From: Ignavibacteriota bacterium
GTDB taxonomy: Bacteria > Bacteroidota > Ignavibacteria > Ignavibacteriales > Ignavibacteriaceae
Assembly (NCBI GenBank): GCA_013285405.1
Contig: CP053446.1
Span: 655,985 to 719,984, forward strand
Length of the DNA stretch: 64,000 bases
Reading direction: 5' to 3'
The notes below the pieces were generated by a model, which was not told the DNA's origin, ran no database searches, and saw only the letters and a list, made by a program, of their open reading frames with translations. Position numbers and translations under genes: made by a program. Below, in pieces: positions 54,861 through 59,570 of this stretch; within the stretch, counting starts at the first letter, position 1, and every line of letters starts with the position of its first letter.

Positions 54861-55610
54861 ATGAAAAATCAAATTATTCTTTGGCTGAGCAGTTTTGTAA
54901 TTCTTTTCGTCATTGGATACATAAAAAACATTACAGATAAAGATTATCCTATGACAGGTACATTCGGTATTGAAGGTTATAAAGTTTCTTATAAACTCGA
55001 TAAAGTTTCGTACAATAAATCAACTTACCGGAACATTATCATCAGCGATATTAAAGGTGTAACCGGAAAATTTATTTGGCTTCAGGATGATAAGAAATAC
55101 GAAATGAATATGAACGAAACTGAACGTGGACTGGTTATAGAAATTCCTGTACTAAAAGCGGGTAAGCAGATAAAGTACAAGGTTGTGTTATCTTACAAAA
55201 ATAAAACTTATGAGATACCTGAATCTGGATATGTTACTTTAACTTTTTGGGGCAATATTCCTTCATCTGTTGAAACACTTTATTTTATCCTGCTGTATTG
55301 CGGAATATTAATATCACTTCGGGGAGCGCTGGAATTATTCAATCAGAATAAAAATCTAAAGAAGTATATTATAATAACCTGTTCACTTTTTATATCTCTT
55401 ACAATTATTATTAATCCTCTTTATAATAGTTATAAACTTGGTGCTCTAAACCATTATGTTCCTAAAGTAACTGATTTGCTGGAAACATCAATGTTAATAC
55501 TTTCACTTGTGTGGATAGTGGGTGCAGTTTTAATTTTTAACAGAAAGTTTACCAAAACAATTACTATGCTTATGACTACAGCTACAATAATTATTTTTTT
55601 TCTGCTTTGA
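54861..55610 (+). CDS. Hypothetical membrane protein (249 aa)
   Basis: N-terminal TM, a beta-rich extracytoplasmic segment of about 110 aa, then 4 TM segments. Confidence 0.45.
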   Translation: MKNQIILWLSSFVILFVIGYIKNITDKDYPMTGTFGIEGYKVSYKLDKVSYNKSTYRNIIISDIKGVTGKFIWLQDDKKYEMNMNETERGLVIEIPVLKAGKQIKYKVVLSYKNKTYEIPESGYVTLTFWGNIPSSVETLYFILLYCGILISLRGALELFNQNKNLKKYIIITCSLFISLTIIINPLYNSYKLGALNHYVPKVTDLLETSMLILSLVWIVGAVLIFNRKFTKTITMLMTTATIIIFFLL

Positions 55611-55614
55611 TATA

Positions 55615-56379
55615 TTAATCGTTCAGAATTGAAATTATTTCAGAATGAATTTGGAGCGATGCTGCAACAGCACTCTTCCCTTTTATAGGATCATTTCCCT
55701 GATAATCAGTAATAATTCCTCCAGCACCTTTTATAATTGGAATCAGTGGAAGCAAGTCCCATTGTGCCATAACCGGATCAATCATTATATCAGCATAACC
55801 GGTAGCCAAAAGATAATAACCGTAACAATCTCCCCAATTACGGTAAAGTTTAATTTTTTTTATTAGTTCGTCAAACCTGCTTCTGTCTTGATACTTTTCA
55901 ATATTCAAATGATCTGTTGTAAGTAAGACTGCTTCACTTAAGTTGACACAGTTTCTAACGGTTGTACTAACTCCATTGATCGTTGTTATAGAATTATCCC
56001 CAATTAAAAAATCATTTAGTATTGGATGATTATAAACTCCGAGTATTGGCTGATCATTTTTTAGAAGTCCTATTAAAGTACCAAAACTATATGCACCGCA
56101 AATAAAGCTTTTTGTACCGTCAATCGGGTCGAGAATCCATTTGTAATCAGCATCTTTGTTCGTTTCACCAAATTCTTCGCCAATTATGCCGTGTTCCGGA
56201 AAATATTTTATTATCATTTCCCTCATTGCTTCTTCAGCTTTTTTATCAGCGATAGTTACCGGAGTGTTATCTGCTTTCGATTCGGCTGCGATTCCCGTTC
56301 TGAAATAATGTTTAATAATTCCAGCACTTACAGATGCAAGATCAGAGCAAAATTTTTTTAATTCGTTGAGTTCACTCAT
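55615..56379 (-). CDS. Inositol monophosphatase family protein (IMPase/HisN-like)
   Basis: Motifs IGEEFG, WILDPIDGTKSF and WDLLPLIPIIKGAGG. Confidence 0.85.
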   Translation of the reverse strand: MSELNELKKFCSDLASVSAGIIKHYFRTGIAAESKADNTPVTIADKKAEEAMREMIIKYFPEHGIIGEEFGETNKDADYKWILDPIDGTKSFICGAYSFGTLIGLLKNDQPILGVYNHPILNDFLIGDNSITTINGVSTTVRNCVNLSEAVLLTTDHLNIEKYQDRSRFDELIKKIKLYRNWGDCYGYYLLATGYADIMIDPVMAQWDLLPLIPIIKGAGGIITDYQGNDPIKGKSAVAASLQIHSEIISILND

Positions 56380-56479
56380 AGCGTATTAGATTTTCATTAA
56401 AGATGAATGGAAAATTAACTAAAAATCCTTTGTGCAAAGAGATAACAATAATTATATTTACAGCCCAAAATAAAAAACC

Positions 56480-56557
56480 GAAGAGTTGGCAGAGTCCCCG
56501 CATTTTGCGGGGTAAAGGTTGTTTATCCCGCTTTGCGAGAAATGTGGCGGTCTTAAT
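56480..56557 (+). pseudogene. Degenerate 5-prime half of tRNA-Ser(UGA) with two hairpin insertions (copy 1)
   Basis: GAAGAGTTGGCAGAGT + [CCCCGCATTTTGCGGGGTAAA] + GGTTG + [TTTATCCCGCTTTGCGAGA] + AATGTGGCGGTCTT, colinear with positions 1 to about 34 of the tRNA at 57428. Confidence 0.6.
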
Positions 56558-56872
56558 ATGTTTTACGTTTACATATTGAAAAGCCTAAAAGTTGATCGGT
56601 ATTATATTGGTCAGACTAAGGATTTAGAAAGAAGATTGACAGAGCATAATTCTTGTAAAACTAGATCTACAAAGGCTTATGTTCCTTGGAAAATTGTTTA
56701 TTGTGAAAAATTCCTGACAAAGATTGAGGCTTATCAAAGAGAAATGGAAATTAAAAGTTATAAGTCTGGAATTAAGTTCAAAGAATTATTTAATCGGAGA
56801 GTTGGCAGAGTCCCCGCATTTTGCGGGGTAAAGGTTGTTTATCCCGCTTTGCGGGAAATGTGGCGGTCTTAA
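56558..56872 (+). CDS. GIY-YIG nuclease family protein (small, stand-alone), copy 1
   Basis: MFYVYILKS...RYYIGQTKDLERRLTEHN ... YQREMEIKSYK. The C-terminal 25 aa are read from the next pseudo-tRNA segment. Confidence 0.85.
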   Translation: MFYVYILKSLKVDRYYIGQTKDLERRLTEHNSCKTRSTKAYVPWKIVYCEKFLTKIEAYQREMEIKSYKSGIKFKELFNRRVGRVPAFCGVKVVYPALREMWRS

Positions 56873-56873
56873 T
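56796..56873 (+). pseudogene. Degenerate 5-prime half of tRNA-Ser(UGA), copy 2
   Basis: Same structure as copy 1; starts with GGAGAGTTGGCAGAGT. Confidence 0.6.
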
Positions 56874-57188
56874 ATGTTTTACGTTTACATATTGAAAAGC
56901 CTAAAAGTTGATCGGTATTATATTGGTCATACTAAGGATTTAGAAAGAAGATTGACAGAGCATAATTCTTGTAAAACCAGATCTACAAAAGCTTATGTTC
57001 CTTGGAAAATTGTTTATTGTGAAAAATTCCTGACAAAGATTGAGGCTTATCAAAGAGAAATGGAAATTAAAAGTTATAAGTCTGGAATTAAGTTCAAGGA
57101 ATTATTTAATCGGAGAGTTGGCAGAGTCCCCGCATTTTGCGGGGTAAAGGTTGTTTATCCCGCTTTGCGGGAAATGTGGCGGTCTTAA
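56874..57188 (+). CDS. GIY-YIG nuclease family protein, copy 2
   Basis: One amino-acid difference from copy 1 (Q to H in YYIGHT). Its ATG lies one nt after the stop of copy 1. Confidence 0.85.
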   Translation: MFYVYILKSLKVDRYYIGHTKDLERRLTEHNSCKTRSTKAYVPWKIVYCEKFLTKIEAYQREMEIKSYKSGIKFKELFNRRVGRVPAFCGVKVVYPALREMWRS

Positions 57189-57189
57189 T
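57112..57189 (+). pseudogene. Degenerate 5-prime half of tRNA-Ser(UGA), copy 3
   Basis: Identical to copy 2 by eye. Confidence 0.6.
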
Positions 57190-57474
57190 ATGTTTTACGT
57201 TTACATATTGAAAAGCCTAAAAGTTGATCGGTATTATATTGGTCATACTAAGGATTTAGAAAGAAGATTGACAGAGCATAATTCTTGTAAAACCAGATCT
57301 ACAAAAGCTTATGTTCCTTGGAAAATTGTTTATTGTGAAAAATTCCTGACAAAGATTGAGGCTTATCAAAGAGAAATGGAAATTAAAAGTTATAAGTCTG
57401 GAATTAAGTTCAAGGAATTATTTAATCGGAGAGTTGGCAGAGTGGTTGAATGCGGCGGTCTTGAAAACCGTTAA
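57190..57474 (+). CDS. GIY-YIG nuclease family protein, copy 3 (3-prime end overlaps the intact tRNA-Ser)
   Basis: Same N-terminal 80 aa. The tail RRVGRVVECGGLENR is read from tRNA nt 1-47, with the stop TAA at 57472-57474. Confidence 0.8.
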   Translation: MFYVYILKSLKVDRYYIGHTKDLERRLTEHNSCKTRSTKAYVPWKIVYCEKFLTKIEAYQREMEIKSYKSGIKFKELFNRRVGRVVECGGLENR

Positions 57475-57514
57475 GGATGCAAGTCCTTCCGGGGTTCGAA
57501 TCCCTGACTCTCCG
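57428..57514 (+). tRNA. tRNA-Ser (anticodon UGA), class II with long variable arm
   Basis: Acceptor GGAGAGT/ACTCTCC, anticodon stem-loop GCGGT-CTTGAAA-ACCGT, variable arm TAAGGATGCAAGTCCTTC, T arm CGGGG-TTCGAAT-CCCTG, discriminator G. CCA is not encoded. Confidence 0.9.
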
Positions 57515-57598
57515 CAAATATTTTTTTTGAGATGAAACTATCCGGCTATAAAAGTTTCTAAATTATAGCGGTTCAGTAGAGAAATTAATTTATTGAAT

Positions 57599-57859
57599 CT
57601 ATTTCTTATCCTCCCAACGCATTACCTTTTCCGGATCAAACTGAACTAAGCCAATTGCTCTGCCTTTTTTTCGAATCATAGTTGGTATTGAAAGAAGAGC
57701 TTCATCTGAATTATTTGCTTCGATCATTGCGTATCCGGTATGATCGCCTGATTTGCATCCCCACCAAAAATGGGTCAGATAACCGATAGCTAAAGTTTGT
57801 TTTATTACCGCTGTACATTCCTCGTGAGTGTGCGGTGAGATGATCATAAATTTTTGCAT
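57599..57859 (-). CDS. Hypothetical protein (86 aa)
   Basis: ORF downstream of, and co-oriented with, the kinase/regulator pair. No recognisable motif. Confidence 0.4.
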   Translation of the reverse strand: MQKFMIISPHTHEECTAVIKQTLAIGYLTHFWWGCKSGDHTGYAMIEANNSDEALLSIPTMIRKKGRAIGLVQFDPEKVMRWEDKK

Positions 57860-57908
57860 AGTTTACTCCTGAAATTAAAAATGAACATAAAAAAATATTA
57901 AAAACTGA

Positions 57909-59570
57909 TCACATCTGATCGAGATATTTTCGAACGAATCGTATCGCCATCGCACCTTCTCCAACAGCAGATGAAATCCCTGTGAATGCCGTTGATCTCA
58001 CATCTCCACAAGCAAATATTCCGGGAATATTAGTTTCCGGTAAAAACGGATTTCTCTCTAATTTCCAAAAAGTATTATATGATTTTTCTTTCATCAAATC
58101 ACTTCCGGTAATGATAAATCCTTTTGCATCTTTTAGTATAGTACTATTCAACCAGGATGTACCGGGTTTTGCACCAATATAAATAAATAGTGCTTTGGCA
58201 GGAACAGATTTTTCTTCACCGGTATTTGAATCACGAAAAGTTATTTTTTCTAAAACTTTATCGCCATCGACGGATATAACTTCAGTACTTGTATGGATTT
58301 TTATGTTTGAGGTTTTGGCAATGTTTTCGATTAAATAATTTGCTGCTGTTTTTTTTATTGAATCACGCCTGATTATTATATTAACTTCTTTTGCGAACTT
58401 ACAAATATGCATTGCTGCCTGACAGGCTGAGTTTCCACCTCCTACGATATAAATAATTTCATCTCTGCAAGCATGTGCTTCTACAGATGCTGAACCGTAA
58501 TACACACCTGCACCGGTGAACTTTTCGATTCCAGTAATTTCAAGTTTGGTATATTCAACTCCAGTTGCTACAATAACGGCTTTACTGTGCACCTCGGTGC
58601 CATCAGTCATCTCGGTAATTTTATAACCATCGTGAACCCGAATGTTCCTTACTATCTTGGGTGTTAATATTTCAGTACCAAAACGGAGAGTTTGAGAAAT
58701 CGCTCTGCGTGTTAGATCAGCTCCTGATAATCCTTTAGGAAAACCCAGATAGTTTTCTATACGTGCACTACTGCTTGCCTGTCCACCCGGATTGCTTTTT
58801 TCAACCAAAATCGTTTTCAATCCTTCGCAAGAACCATATACAGAGGCTGCAAGTCCTGCAGGTCCGCCTCCAATAATCAGGACATCATACATTTTTAGAG
58901 ATGCAGTTTGCTGAAGTCCGATTTTTTGAGCCAGATCAGTTAAAGAAGGATCTTTTATCCACGTTCCATCTTTTAAAATAATTAACGGCAGATCATCAAG
59001 GTTTAAATTAGCACTAACGAGATATTTTTCTGCTTCGGAATCATTTTCAACATCCATCCATCTGTATGGAATCAGATTACCGGAAAGAAATTCTTTTAGT
59101 TGATGGGATTTTGGTGACCATTGAAAACCAATAATGCGAATACCTTCATGGTCTGGTTTATATTGAGCCTGCCAATCGTCCAATAAGTCATCAACAATTG
59201 GATAAAGTTTTTCATCAGGCGGATTCCATGGTTTCAATAAATAATAATCAAGCTTCAGGTTATTGATAGATCTTATCGCAACATCAATATCAGAATAAGC
59301 TGTCAGCAAAACTGATTTAGCTTCGGAATACAGCTCCTTTGATTTTTCTAAAAATATTATCCCTTCCATCTCAGGCATACGCTGGTCAGAAATGATTAAT
59401 GCAACAGTTTCATTTTTTAGTTTAAGTTCTTTAATCAGCTCAATAGCTTCATTAGCTGAATCAGTTGCGCTTATACGGTAGTCAGTTTGATACTTTTTAC
59501 GGATATCACGCTGAATTGCTCGAAGCACGTGCTCATCATCATCAACAATTAATATAAATGGCAGTTTCAT
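57909..59570 (-). CDS. Fused response regulator / thioredoxin-fold / thioredoxin-reductase-like flavoprotein
   Basis: REC domain (ILIVDDDE, IISDQRMP, LLKPW), FAD motif VLIIGGGPAGLAAS, NAD(P)H motif IVGGGNSACQAA, C-terminal GIFACGDV. Confidence 0.85.
   Translation of the reverse strand: MKLPFILIVDDDEHVLRAIQRDIRKKYQTDYRISATDSANEAIELIKELKLKNETVALIISDQRMPEMEGIIFLEKSKELYSEAKSVLLTAYSDIDVAIRSINNLKLDYYLLKPWNPPDEKLYPIVDDLLDDWQAQYKPDHEGIRIIGFQWSPKSHQLKEFLSGNLIPYRWMDVENDSEAEKYLVSANLNLDDLPLIILKDGTWIKDPSLTDLAQKIGLQQTASLKMYDVLIIGGGPAGLAASVYGSCEGLKTILVEKSNPGGQASSSARIENYLGFPKGLSGADLTRRAISQTLRFGTEILTPKIVRNIRVHDGYKITEMTDGTEVHSKAVIVATGVEYTKLEITGIEKFTGAGVYYGSASVEAHACRDEIIYIVGGGNSACQAAMHICKFAKEVNIIIRRDSIKKTAANYLIENIAKTSNIKIHTSTEVISVDGDKVLEKITFRDSNTGEEKSVPAKALFIYIGAKPGTSWLNSTILKDAKGFIITGSDLMKEKSYNTFWKLERNPFLPETNIPGIFACGDVRSTAFTGISSAVGEGAMAIRFVRKYLDQM

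Follow-up and report, generated by a model that had tools for sequence, protein, structure and literature searches.

A GIY-YIG nuclease gene nested in a partly duplicated tRNA-Ser gene of an Ignavibacteriota bacterium, possibly a selfish cassette of tRNA loci

Results

Layout of the Array

The locus described here lies in a 64-kb stretch of the genome of an Ignavibacteriota bacterium (64,000 nt; GenBank assembly GCA_013285405.1, contig CP053446.1, positions 655,985 to 719,984), which is referred to as the window, and consists of a tandem array of small GIY-YIG nuclease genes and tRNA gene fragments that ends in an intact tRNA-Ser(UGA) gene (Table 1). A 316-bp unit, whose only open reading frame (ORF) was the GIY-YIG gene, was repeated three times head to tail, with starts at 56480, 56796, and 57112, and the last unit abutted the intact tRNA gene at 57428–57515. 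Tandem Repeats Finder reported positions 56482–57443 with a period of 316, 3.0 copies and 99% matches. The intact gene was the sole tRNA called by ARAGORN in the window, as tRNA-Ser(tga), and was scored by Rfam at 57.8 bits. No other Rfam family was found in 55500–58500 at E ≤ 10, where the fragments and their hairpins remained unmatched, and the 400 nt downstream of the intact gene contained no further copy of the 3′ half.

Each unit opened with a pseudo 5′ part of the same tRNA. Its first part, GGAGAGTTGGCAGAGT, corresponded to tRNA positions 1–16 and was followed by hairpin A (CCCCGCATTTTGCGGGG) plus TAAA, by GGTTG (tRNA positions 17–21), by TTTA plus hairpin B (TCCCGCTTTGCGGGA) and by ATGTGGCGGTCTT (tRNA positions 23–34), of which the last stretch carried one C>T change with a G-U pair of the D stem preserved. 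Colinearity with the tRNA stopped at CTT, after which came AAT and then the ATG of the nuclease ORF (56558, 56874, and 57190). ORFs 1 and 2 continued across the next fragment and ended with a TAA 1 nt before the following ATG, and the last 47 nt of ORF 3 were inside the real tRNA.

An earlier reading of the window, made from its letters alone (hereafter the sequence-only reading), had described three 316-bp units followed by an intact tRNA, with units 2 and 3 identical, a fragment colinear with tRNA positions 1–34 that is split by two palindromes and ends at CTT with the ATG 3 nt further on, and a repeated order of fragment, nuclease gene and tRNA (F-G-F-G-F-G-tRNA). All of its coordinates were right, as judged with Tandem Repeats Finder, ARAGORN, and Rfam, and the module order was found again in the relatives. 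Its expectation that tRNA searches would return one intact tRNA and three fragments held for the single tRNA, but the three pseudo-tRNA fragments were called tRNA by neither ARAGORN nor Rfam.

Units 2 and 3 showed no difference over all 316 bp, and unit 1 differed from them at 6 positions. Position 2 of the tRNA was A in the outermost fragment F1 and G in the inner fragments F2 and F3, as in the tRNA itself. Unit 1 also carried H19Q at a nearly invariant histidine (56558–56791 compared with 56874–57107) and a weakened hairpin B. Decay may thus have begun in unit 1, with units 2 and 3 still intact by sequence. An assembly artifact was rejected as the source of the array: an independent assembly of the same species (L082) had at least three units with the same diverged first unit and a 10-N gap inside the array. 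Short-read assemblies with two units may contain collapsed repeats, and differences in copy number between assemblies were therefore not relied on.

Table 1. Features of the array and its flanks in the window.
Feature	Position	Strand	Basis
Inositol-monophosphatase-family gene, neighbor	55615–56379	−	
Promoter-like block (TTTG, 20 nt, TATATTTA) upstream of F1	56429–56461	+	Conservation in relatives
F1, pseudo 5′ tRNA-Ser(UGA) 1–34 with two D-loop hairpin insertions, diverged (A at position 2)	56480–56554	+	Sequence comparison
Hairpin A of unit 1, CCCCGCATTTTGCGGGG	56496–56512	+	Hairpin scan
Hairpin B of unit 1, TCCCGCTTTGCGAGA, stem weakened by G>A (unit position 59)	56526–56540	+	Unit alignment
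G1, GIY-YIG ORF of 104 aa; core 56558–56791, tail is F2 read-through; H19Q	56558–56872	+	ORF list, Pfam, alignment
F2, pseudo 5′ tRNA part, hairpins 56812–56828 and 56842–56856	56796–56870	+	Unit alignment, hairpin scan
G2, GIY-YIG ORF of 104 aa, identical to protein P0001	56874–57188	+	ORF list, Pfam
F3, pseudo 5′ tRNA part, hairpins 57128–57144 and 57158–57172, identical to F2	57112–57186	+	Unit alignment, hairpin scan
G3, GIY-YIG ORF of 94 aa, last 47 nt overlap intact tRNA	57190–57474	+	ORF list
Intact tRNA-Ser(UGA), by eye base-for-base the tRNA at empty sites of relatives	57428–57515	+	ARAGORN, Rfam, locus comparison
T-run just past the tRNA, possible end of the transcription unit (function predicted)	57521–57528	+	Read from sequence
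553-aa ORF, N-terminal response-regulator receiver plus thioredoxin-reductase-like pyridine nucleotide-disulphide oxidoreductase; unrelated	57909–59570	−	

The Nuclease Protein

The ORF matched the Pfam family GIY-YIG (PF01541, E = 2e-14). When a profile of 32 homologs was compared with the Protein Data Bank, the hits were BH0048 (1zg2, E = 3e-12), EF2693 (1ywl, 1e-10), and eukaryotic SLX1 (~1e-5). The AlphaFold model (pLDDT 80) consisted of a beta-beta-alpha-beta-alpha-alpha core in residues 1–81 and a disordered tail, and Foldseek ranked 1zg2 first, then Slx1 and then the catalytic domain of I-TevI. Residues Y5, Y16, G18, R26, H30, E50, and E62 were invariant in 32/32 homologs, and the Tyr, Tyr, Arg and Glu of the GIY...YIG...R...E core presumably have their usual catalytic roles in this family. 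The core ranged from 78 to 86 amino acid residues; residues 82–104 of the window's protein were tRNA read-through and were modeled as disordered. Neither the alignment nor the AlphaFold model contained a sequence-specific DNA-binding module attached to the catalytic domain. All Pfam and NCBIfam matches were of GIY-YIG type, and no HUH (Y1) transposase was found in the protein. Thus, the protein is a member of the minimal Slx1-like (UPF0213) branch of GIY-YIG proteins, a family of 6,381 clusters at 50% identity (E ≤ 1e-10). This "minimal" prokaryotic Slx1-like branch was delineated by Dunin-Horkawicz et al. (2006), who reported fusions to tRNA methyltransferases and assigned no function (PMC1564403).

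An uninterrupted core and an assignable neighboring tRNA were found together at 72/81 loci. In the protein alignment, many homologs ended in ...E(R/S)WQSG, which resembles a translated tRNA 5′ end, and some annotated N-termini (MAEWLSSQSEIPLCGKCGGLEM) resembled a translated hairpin-bearing fragment. Public gene calls (P0024, P0037, P0241, P0242, and others) extended N-terminally through the pseudo-tRNA (MAEWLSS..IPLCGKCGGLEM) or C-terminally into the tRNA (ERWQSG), and tandem copies were fused into two-domain ORF calls in P0241 and P0242. Such extensions and fusions are annotation artifacts that mask the tRNA fragments.

Linkage to tRNA Genes Across Relatives

The comparative set consisted of 80 loci from different species, the best 80 of 407 confirmed matches. 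It spanned Ignavibacteriota, Bacteroidota, Patescibacteria, Omnitrophota, and others, with sequences mostly from contigs of metagenome-assembled genomes (MAGs). The gene directly adjoined a co-oriented tRNA at 68/80 loci. At 60 of the 80 the co-oriented tRNA began 0–52 nt past the core (median 12.5) and was Ser-tga (19 loci), Ser-gga (12), Ser-cga (10), Ser-gct (9), Tyr (7) or Thr, Glu, or Gln (1 each). At another 8/80 the layout was mirrored, with the intact tRNA immediately upstream of the gene and a 3′ pseudo-copy of that tRNA after it. The remaining 12/80 mostly had a tRNA at 68–256 nt or were cut by N runs or contig ends. Tandem copies were also present at L015, L046, L048, and L068.

The 140 nt upstream of the gene held a 5′-part copy of the same tRNA that followed downstream, whatever its identity, at 61/64 independent loci. 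The copy was often 36/36 identical and scored far above 200 control windows per locus. Besides Ser-UGA, the gene family was joined to partial Ser-GCU, GGA, and CGA, Tyr, Thr, Glu, Gln, Gly, and Pro tRNAs, although those other than Ser and Tyr were rare. The suggestion of the sequence-only reading that the same ORF might be found joined to 5′ halves of other tRNAs was thus borne out, for Ser isoacceptors and six other amino acids. The nearest-neighbor protein was at the same isoacceptor in 39/72 cases compared with 13 expected by chance, and switches of isoacceptor (Ser-gga/Ser-cga and Ser-gga/Ser-gct) were observed at 79–81% protein identity. The distribution over phyla and tRNA types was patchy. 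Among the carriers is the cultivable Melioribacter (protein P0067).

The Twin-Hairpin Module

At 69/80 loci a hairpin of the type seen in the window's fragments adjoined the gene, and the density of GC-rich hairpins was 2.18 per kb beside the gene compared with 0.30 per kb elsewhere in the loci. The module comprised two hairpins. Hairpin 1 was CCACCGCC-n3-4-GGCGGGG, read as having a conserved bulged A, with a variant CATCGCC...GGCGAG. Hairpin 2 was TCCCGCC-n3-4-GGCGGGA, with the covarying stems TCCCGCC/GGCGGGA, TTCCGCC/GGCGGAA, and TGCCGCC/GGCGGCA. The covarying position was C-G in 41 copies, G-C in 8 and T-A in 4, with one mismatch, so that 53/54 distinct copies were paired compared with 35.9 expected. 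At L009, a search of Rfam likewise returned no family for the fragment or its hairpins (E ≤ 1). By sequence, the twin hairpin is a conserved, covarying hallmark of the cassette family, not a product of decay; the sequence-only reading, which had described the palindromes as two small insertions, needs correction on this point, as they are not incidental. For the same reason a decaying pseudogene was rejected as an explanation of the fragment, its hairpins being covarying and conserved across phyla. A genome-wide REP-like repeat (REP, repetitive extragenic palindrome) was likewise rejected for the window, in which GC-rich hairpins of the module type were confined to the three fragments.

The module was always in a tRNA loop, its insertion there was precise and without target duplication, and hairpins were gained at new positions inside one lineage. 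The anticodon-loop sites were CTTG^AAAAC, CTTGG^AAAGG, and GACTG^TAAATC, in which the caret marks the insertion point. The 3′ side of the D-loop (GGTTG^AATGC) was used in the lineage of the window, the 5′ side of the D-loop was used in inverted orientation (GCAGA^GTGGTC), and the T-loop was used in pseudo-copies (GGTTCG^AATCC). Past the module, colinearity with the tRNA lasted just 8–20 nt before the ATG. In the upstream layout the distance from hairpin to ATG was nearly constant (14–50 nt), and the orientation of the module relative to the gene could be either way (L096 and L138). The boundary between fragment and ORF varied from ~28 to 47 in tRNA coordinates, with a hairpin within a few tens of nucleotides of the ATG. 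Because the module stays near the ATG while the boundary shifts, this boundary is not a fixed insertion point in the anticodon loop.

A scan of metagenomes with the exact twin hairpin (35–37 nt) gave at least 89 matches on at least 80 contigs. Among the matches listed, ~25 adjoined a nuclease gene, with the ATG 19–29 nt past the module. The flanks of the twin hairpins, also among the matches listed, gave the logo TTG^AAAnC (n = 78; −3 T 47, −1 G 63, +1 A 51, +2 A 64, +3 A 56, and +5 C 44), and direct repeats of 5–9 nt flanked 11/87 of the listed copies compared with 2% in controls. Solo copies far from any GIY-YIG gene or tRNA were present in the set L087–L166 (for example, L091 1151–1185, L118 3627–3662, L126, and L163), and some copies were at the apex of other palindromes or between short direct repeats. 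A solo module is either a tiny dispersed element or else a footprint.

Tandem pseudo-tRNA arrays with twin hairpins in the anticodon loop and/or the T-loop and no nuclease gene between copies were observed at L051 (2886–3220), L076 (2862–2979), L139, and L155, with periods of ~159, 101, and 122 nt. Moreover, nucleotides foreign to the host tRNA followed the hairpin at L019 (2433–2447), L036 (2366–2380), L210, L211, and in the window (56513–56516). These nucleotides (TAAA and TAAACGCCGT) resembled the 3′ side of the anticodon loops of other tRNAs, as if the hairpins had been copied along with a little flank from another tRNA.

Complete Copies with a Split Resident tRNA

At L006, L070, L073, and L063 a whole tRNA gene was split around the cassette. 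The order began with resident tRNA 1–35, a twin hairpin and tRNA 36–47, continued with a leader, the nuclease gene and the intact tRNA, and closed with a spacer, ~9 nt of anticodon stem, a second twin hairpin and resident tRNA 36 to its end. Deletion of the span from the left to the right hairpin at L006 rebuilt an 88-nt tRNA-Ser(tga) that was valid for ARAGORN. The rebuilt tRNA differed at many positions from the enclosed intact tRNA, for instance in the acceptor stem (GGAAGCG vs. GGAGAGG). From these sequences, the two are clearly different genes, and replacement tRNAs can be foreign. Similarly, L063 rebuilt a tRNA valid for ARAGORN, and L070 did so once extra hairpin inserts were removed; L073 had the same layout by eye, but its rebuilt sequence was not ARAGORN-valid.

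Remnants of the resident 3′ part downstream of the intact tRNA were found at 10 to 13 of 59 loci, including L005 and L023 from the window's own lineage. The common form without a 3′ remnant, which is that of the window, may have arisen from the complete one if its two 3′ parts recombined with each other. The sequence-only reading had proposed an element that inserts at the anticodon loop and brings a replacement for the tRNA part. This is what the complete copies show, but it fails as a fixed insertion point for the window, whose hairpins are in the D-loop.

History of the Locus and Growth of the Array

In distant Ignavibacteriaceae MAGs (L001-3, L018, L021, L036, and L037) the inositol-monophosphatase-family gene was likewise followed by fragment, nuclease gene and tRNA-Ser(tga). 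The identities to the window were 61–65% for the phosphatase and 64–77% for the nuclease, and such synteny in genera with so diverged a phosphatase means that the occupancy is old. Closer relatives (phosphatase 75–80% identical) shared a promoter-like flank and differed in the state of the site. The site was empty at L207 and L212, where the flank ran straight into a tRNA matching that of the window by eye. It held one unit at L208. At L209, L210, and L211 the nuclease gene was missing, and the site contained a pseudo-tRNA (position 1 to ~50), whose D-loop and anticodon loop carried degenerate hairpins, and after it a spacer and then the intact tRNA. Within the window's species, two units were present in L081 and L083-85, and at least three in the window and L082. 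The unit nearest the promoter was the diverged one in all strains; its position 2 was A and the stem of its hairpin B was weakened, and in the window and L082 it also carried H19Q.

Two checks named by the sequence-only reading therefore came out positive: the empty tRNA-Ser(UGA) locus exists at the same syntenic position (L207 and L212), and occupancy varies from empty through remnant to one, two and at least three units. Empty, occupied and decayed states at one site are as predicted for the life cycle of a selfish nuclease gene. As the site is occupied in the deep relatives, precise loss through the direct repeat is the simplest explanation of the empty sites.

Units 1 and 2 differed by ~2%, which is old, and units 2 and 3 did not differ, which is recent. 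The view that the near-identity of the units reflects recent events thus applied to the last duplication only, and not to the first duplication or to the ancient occupancy of the locus. Stacking by repeated insertion, with each event pushing the old 5′ half upstream, had also been proposed and was not supported. A fresh insertion would leave a hairpin-free 5′ half, and the inner fragments carry both hairpins, so that repeated insertion into the anticodon loop is unlikely. Judged from the sequence of the units, an exchange inside the first 16 nt, which fragment and tRNA have in common, is the most likely source of the array, since F2 and F3 have the G of the tRNA at position 2 as well as both hairpins. 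Such growth could have occurred by unequal sister recombination across the shared 16 nt, or alternatively a break in the tRNA could have been repaired by invasion of the fragment, with hairpins, gene and tRNA 5′ end being copied again.

Directly after the same tRNA-Ser(UGA), the sister strain L081 (4751–8315) contained an island that encodes a phage-type integrase together with a SEFIR/TIR protein and a BrxL-like protein, so there is a separate hot spot for integration on the 3′ side of this gene. In place of this island, the window had an 86-aa ORF and a response-regulator gene.

Transcription Signals

The block upstream of F1 (ctttgtg..ctatatttacagcccaaaata) was conserved in relatives, and its distance to the intact tRNA at the empty sites (L207 and L212) equaled its distance to the fragment at occupied sites. 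We take it to be a putative promoter from the Bacteroidota-type consensus, although a sigma-70 scan did not flag it. Matches to sigma-70 promoters inside each ORF (TTGAAA/TATTAT) were not counted as evidence, and no terminator-like site was found inside the array. Given the conserved upstream block, the lack of an internal terminator and the spacing of 1 nt between stop and start codons, this block probably drives the whole array together with the tRNA.

Discussion

A Proposed Selfish Nuclease Cassette in a tRNA Gene

Taken together, we favor the view, to which we assign a probability of roughly 55%, that a selfish nuclease cassette has long resided at this locus, within a tRNA gene that it has duplicated in part. 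In its full form, a cassette of this family consists of the 5′ part of the resident tRNA, a twin hairpin, a short tRNA-derived leader, a Slx1-like GIY-YIG gene, an intact replacement tRNA, another twin hairpin and the 3′ part of the resident tRNA. It interrupts a tRNA loop and would keep the host viable by replacing the whole or the 5′ part of the same tRNA. The window represents the common trimmed form, with no 3′ remnant and with hairpins in the D-loop. The cassette, which has no visible promoter or terminator of its own, is probably transcribed from the tRNA promoter and released by the RNase P cut at the tRNA 5′ end.

A bare GIY-YIG domain cannot read a long sequence, so that it probably recognizes structure. 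The 80-aa nuclease might act structure-specifically on the twin hairpin as cruciform or junction-like DNA, or on loop DNA with TTG^AAA. The two stems of the twin hairpin are near-identical and could extrude as a cruciform or a junction, and loops of tRNA genes carry TTG^AAA. The resulting breaks would promote the conversion of cognate tRNA genes or insertion into them, for which the conserved tRNA halves would supply ready homology across species, and they would also lead to local changes in copy number.

Several points weigh against this reading. The mechanism, with its cleavage, excision and transfer, is deduced wholly from sequence comparison. The intact tRNA next to the gene and that of the empty sites appear to have one and the same sequence, with no sequence-based immunity visible, so that a simple sequence-specific homing nuclease would cut its own locus. 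The locus has long been occupied, in synteny across genera, and the level of conservation of the protein is similar to that of the neighboring housekeeping gene, which fits domestication as well as selfish persistence. No copies were found in a search of plasmids, and 2.9 million viral contigs yielded one weak relative only, which leaves no known vehicle for horizontal spread; on the same results, an origin of the cassette from a phage or plasmid was rejected. The MAG contigs may be mis-binned or hold collapsed repeats. Finally, ~55/89 of the matches listed in the metagenome scan had no nuclease gene or tRNA within −700/+1000 nt, and given such solo copies the hairpin may have a life of its own.

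Other Explanations

The best of the other explanations, which we consider unlikely, is that the host keeps the nuclease and its hairpin site for a function at the tRNA locus and that the cassette is no longer mobile. Candidate roles would be to process stalled forks or R-loops where tRNA genes are highly transcribed, to control the copy number of these genes or to block the integrases that target them, and the duplicated tRNA pieces would be by-products of nuclease-induced recombination. Vertical retention of the syntenic locus across genera whose neighboring genes are 61–65% identical agrees with such domestication, as do the invariant catalytic residues and the integrase island directly after the tRNA in the sister strain L081. 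So does membership of the Slx1 clade: rDNA repeats are maintained by Slx1 in eukaryotes, and some of the prokaryotic proteins are fused to tRNA methyltransferases (PMC1564403). However, the close relatives with empty sites (L207 and L212) do without the cassette, and L209–L211 retain only degenerate remnants that lack the gene. Moreover, split resident tRNAs with a foreign replacement point to invasion and not to local housekeeping, and the occurrence across phyla and tRNA types is patchy.

Alternatively, the twin hairpin might be the primary mobile unit, a 35–37 nt element like a REP or a MITE (miniature inverted-repeat transposable element) that inserts at TTG^AAA, with the GIY-YIG protein as a single-copy nuclease acting in trans in a role like that of RAYT. 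In that case tRNA loops would be hit for their motif, and a gene in a tRNA duplicate would borrow a strong promoter. The many solo copies, the flank logo, the precise insertion into tRNA loops without target duplication, the gain of hairpins at new positions inside one lineage and the gene-less arrays of hairpin-bearing pseudo-tRNAs (L051, L076, and L139) are all consistent with this idea, which we nonetheless regard as rather improbable. In the 64-kb window and the 5-kb flanks of the 80 loci, hairpins were essentially only beside the gene, and the direct repeats at a minority of the listed copies do not amount to one clean mechanism. In addition, the idea overlaps with the selfish cassette and does not exclude it.

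That the nuclease gene is an ordinary, vertically inherited neighbor of the tRNA, with an array made by one or two local unequal crossovers, is very improbable. The synteny in the family is as expected for such a neighbor, and recombination in the shared 16 nt fully accounts for the array. The sequence-only reading had itself named this possibility as one that would undo its proposal, and it is contradicted by the tRNA-matched fragments, the site states and the split tRNAs: the fragment matches whichever tRNA adjoins at nearly all independent loci, empty and remnant states occur at the same site, and split resident tRNAs enclose a different tRNA. The conserved, covarying hairpins and the switches of isoacceptor at ~80% protein identity also speak against it.

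A device at the RNA level, in which the hairpins are selected as RNA and form, with the fragment, either a tRNA-like leader for the stability or regulation of the nuclease mRNA or else an RNA that acts as guide or decoy, can hardly be maintained: the leader does fold at −34.9 kcal/mol (z = −4.2 vs. shuffled sequence), the distance from hairpin to ATG is nearly constant and the insertions are in loops, so the tRNA stems could still form, but the module can point either way with respect to the gene (L096 and L138) and is found downstream of it in the mirror layout and also far from any gene, exceptions of G-U vs. A-C type are rare and symmetric, no Rfam family matched and an 80-aa GIY-YIG domain is unlikely to be an RNA-guided enzyme.

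Comparison with Known Systems

Among known systems, the nearest published one is SegB, a free-standing GIY-YIG homing endonuclease whose gene is part of the tRNA gene cluster of phage T4; it recognizes the conserved motif of the T-psi-C stem-loop in tRNA genes and drags neighboring tRNA genes along when homing (PMC2330249). Similarly, HNH endonuclease genes are linked to mobile tRNA arrays (PMC8421152). Like SegB, the cassette is a GIY-YIG gene among tRNA genes with presence/absence polymorphism between relatives, here at the tRNA-Ser(UGA) site. Different from SegB, which has a DNA-binding region and belongs to the homing endonuclease/UvrC lineage, the cassette protein is a bare 80-aa Slx1-like domain. 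Also different from the phage Seg genes, the cassette is cellular, is distributed across phyla and comes with a partial tRNA duplicate and a conserved twin hairpin.

By sequence and fold the protein belongs to the same family as the UPF0213 proteins BH0048 (1zg2) and EF2693 (1ywl) and Slx1. Slx1 is an enzyme that cleaves branched and stem-loop DNA and by which tandem rDNA repeats are maintained. In contrast to Slx1-Slx4, no Slx4-like partner or RING domain is present in the cassette. Structures of UPF0213 proteins have been available since 2005, and to our knowledge no function has been established for them; a full-text literature search found no function and no association with tRNA genes or hairpins for the bacterial members.

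Similar to integrase islands and prophages, the cassette interrupts a tRNA gene that is restored by an element-borne part copy, with a partial tRNA repeat at the other end. Such a direct repeat of a tRNA part was found at both ends of the insert as the 5′ part at 61/64 loci and as both resident halves at L006, L063, and L070 (L073 by eye). Integrase islands, however, encode a tyrosine or serine recombinase and normally use the 3′ part of the tRNA, whereas the cassette has no recombinase, is only 0.3–0.6 kb, duplicates the 5′ part or carries a whole tRNA, and has hairpin modules in tRNA loops as its junctions. The integrase of L081 is part of the separate island downstream of the tRNA and not of the cassette.

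With REP/REPIN-RAYT and IS200/IS605 systems the cassette family shares dispersed short GC-rich palindromes, precise insertion next to a motif without target duplication, and a single-copy nuclease gene flanked by palindromes. Those systems use an HUH Y1 transposase, whereas the nuclease here is of GIY-YIG type, the usual bracketing by left and right ends is missing and the linkage to tRNA genes is specific. Like introns of the tRNA anticodon loop, many family members interrupt the anticodon at positions 34–36, and group I introns often carry GIY-YIG genes. Different from group I introns, no ribozyme was matched in Rfam, the interrupted copy is usually without its 3′ part and cannot be spliced, and function is rescued by a second gene copy and not by splicing. 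A group I intron or intron-borne endonuclease was thus rejected (NCBIfam grpIintron_endo, 18 bits vs. a cut-off of 56; no ribozyme).

The full-text search found no description of the cassette architecture, and such absence is not proof of novelty; the related literature was limited to SegB, the HNH-linked tRNA arrays and the phylogenomics paper on GIY-YIG of 2006. The cassette is a variant on the theme of selfish nucleases and tRNA-targeting elements and possibly a new class. More tentatively, and with less than even odds in our judgment, this would be a new class of prokaryotic mobile elements. Twin hairpins would form the boundaries of the cassette, and the enzyme that moves it would be a minimal GIY-YIG nuclease of Slx1-like type, which would recognize cruciform or loop DNA (TTG^AAA) and not a long sequence. 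It would destroy a tRNA gene and bring the replacement, and so be addictive to its host. The dispersed 36-nt twin hairpins would be footprints or non-autonomous derivatives, and bacterial UPF0213 proteins would obtain their first biological role.

Implications

The association with tRNA genes gives the bacterial UPF0213 proteins a concrete candidate substrate, the twin hairpin or the DNA of tRNA loops. The cassette would also represent a new way to occupy an essential gene, in which neither splicing nor an integrase is involved and the gene is duplicated or replaced around the nuclease gene. For genome annotation, pseudo-tRNA fragments at such loci are translated as spurious N- and C-terminal extensions. 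A very small nuclease directed by structure or motif could be useful as a tool. Finally, with regard to the evolution of tRNA genes, the replacement tRNAs that these cassettes bring can be foreign.

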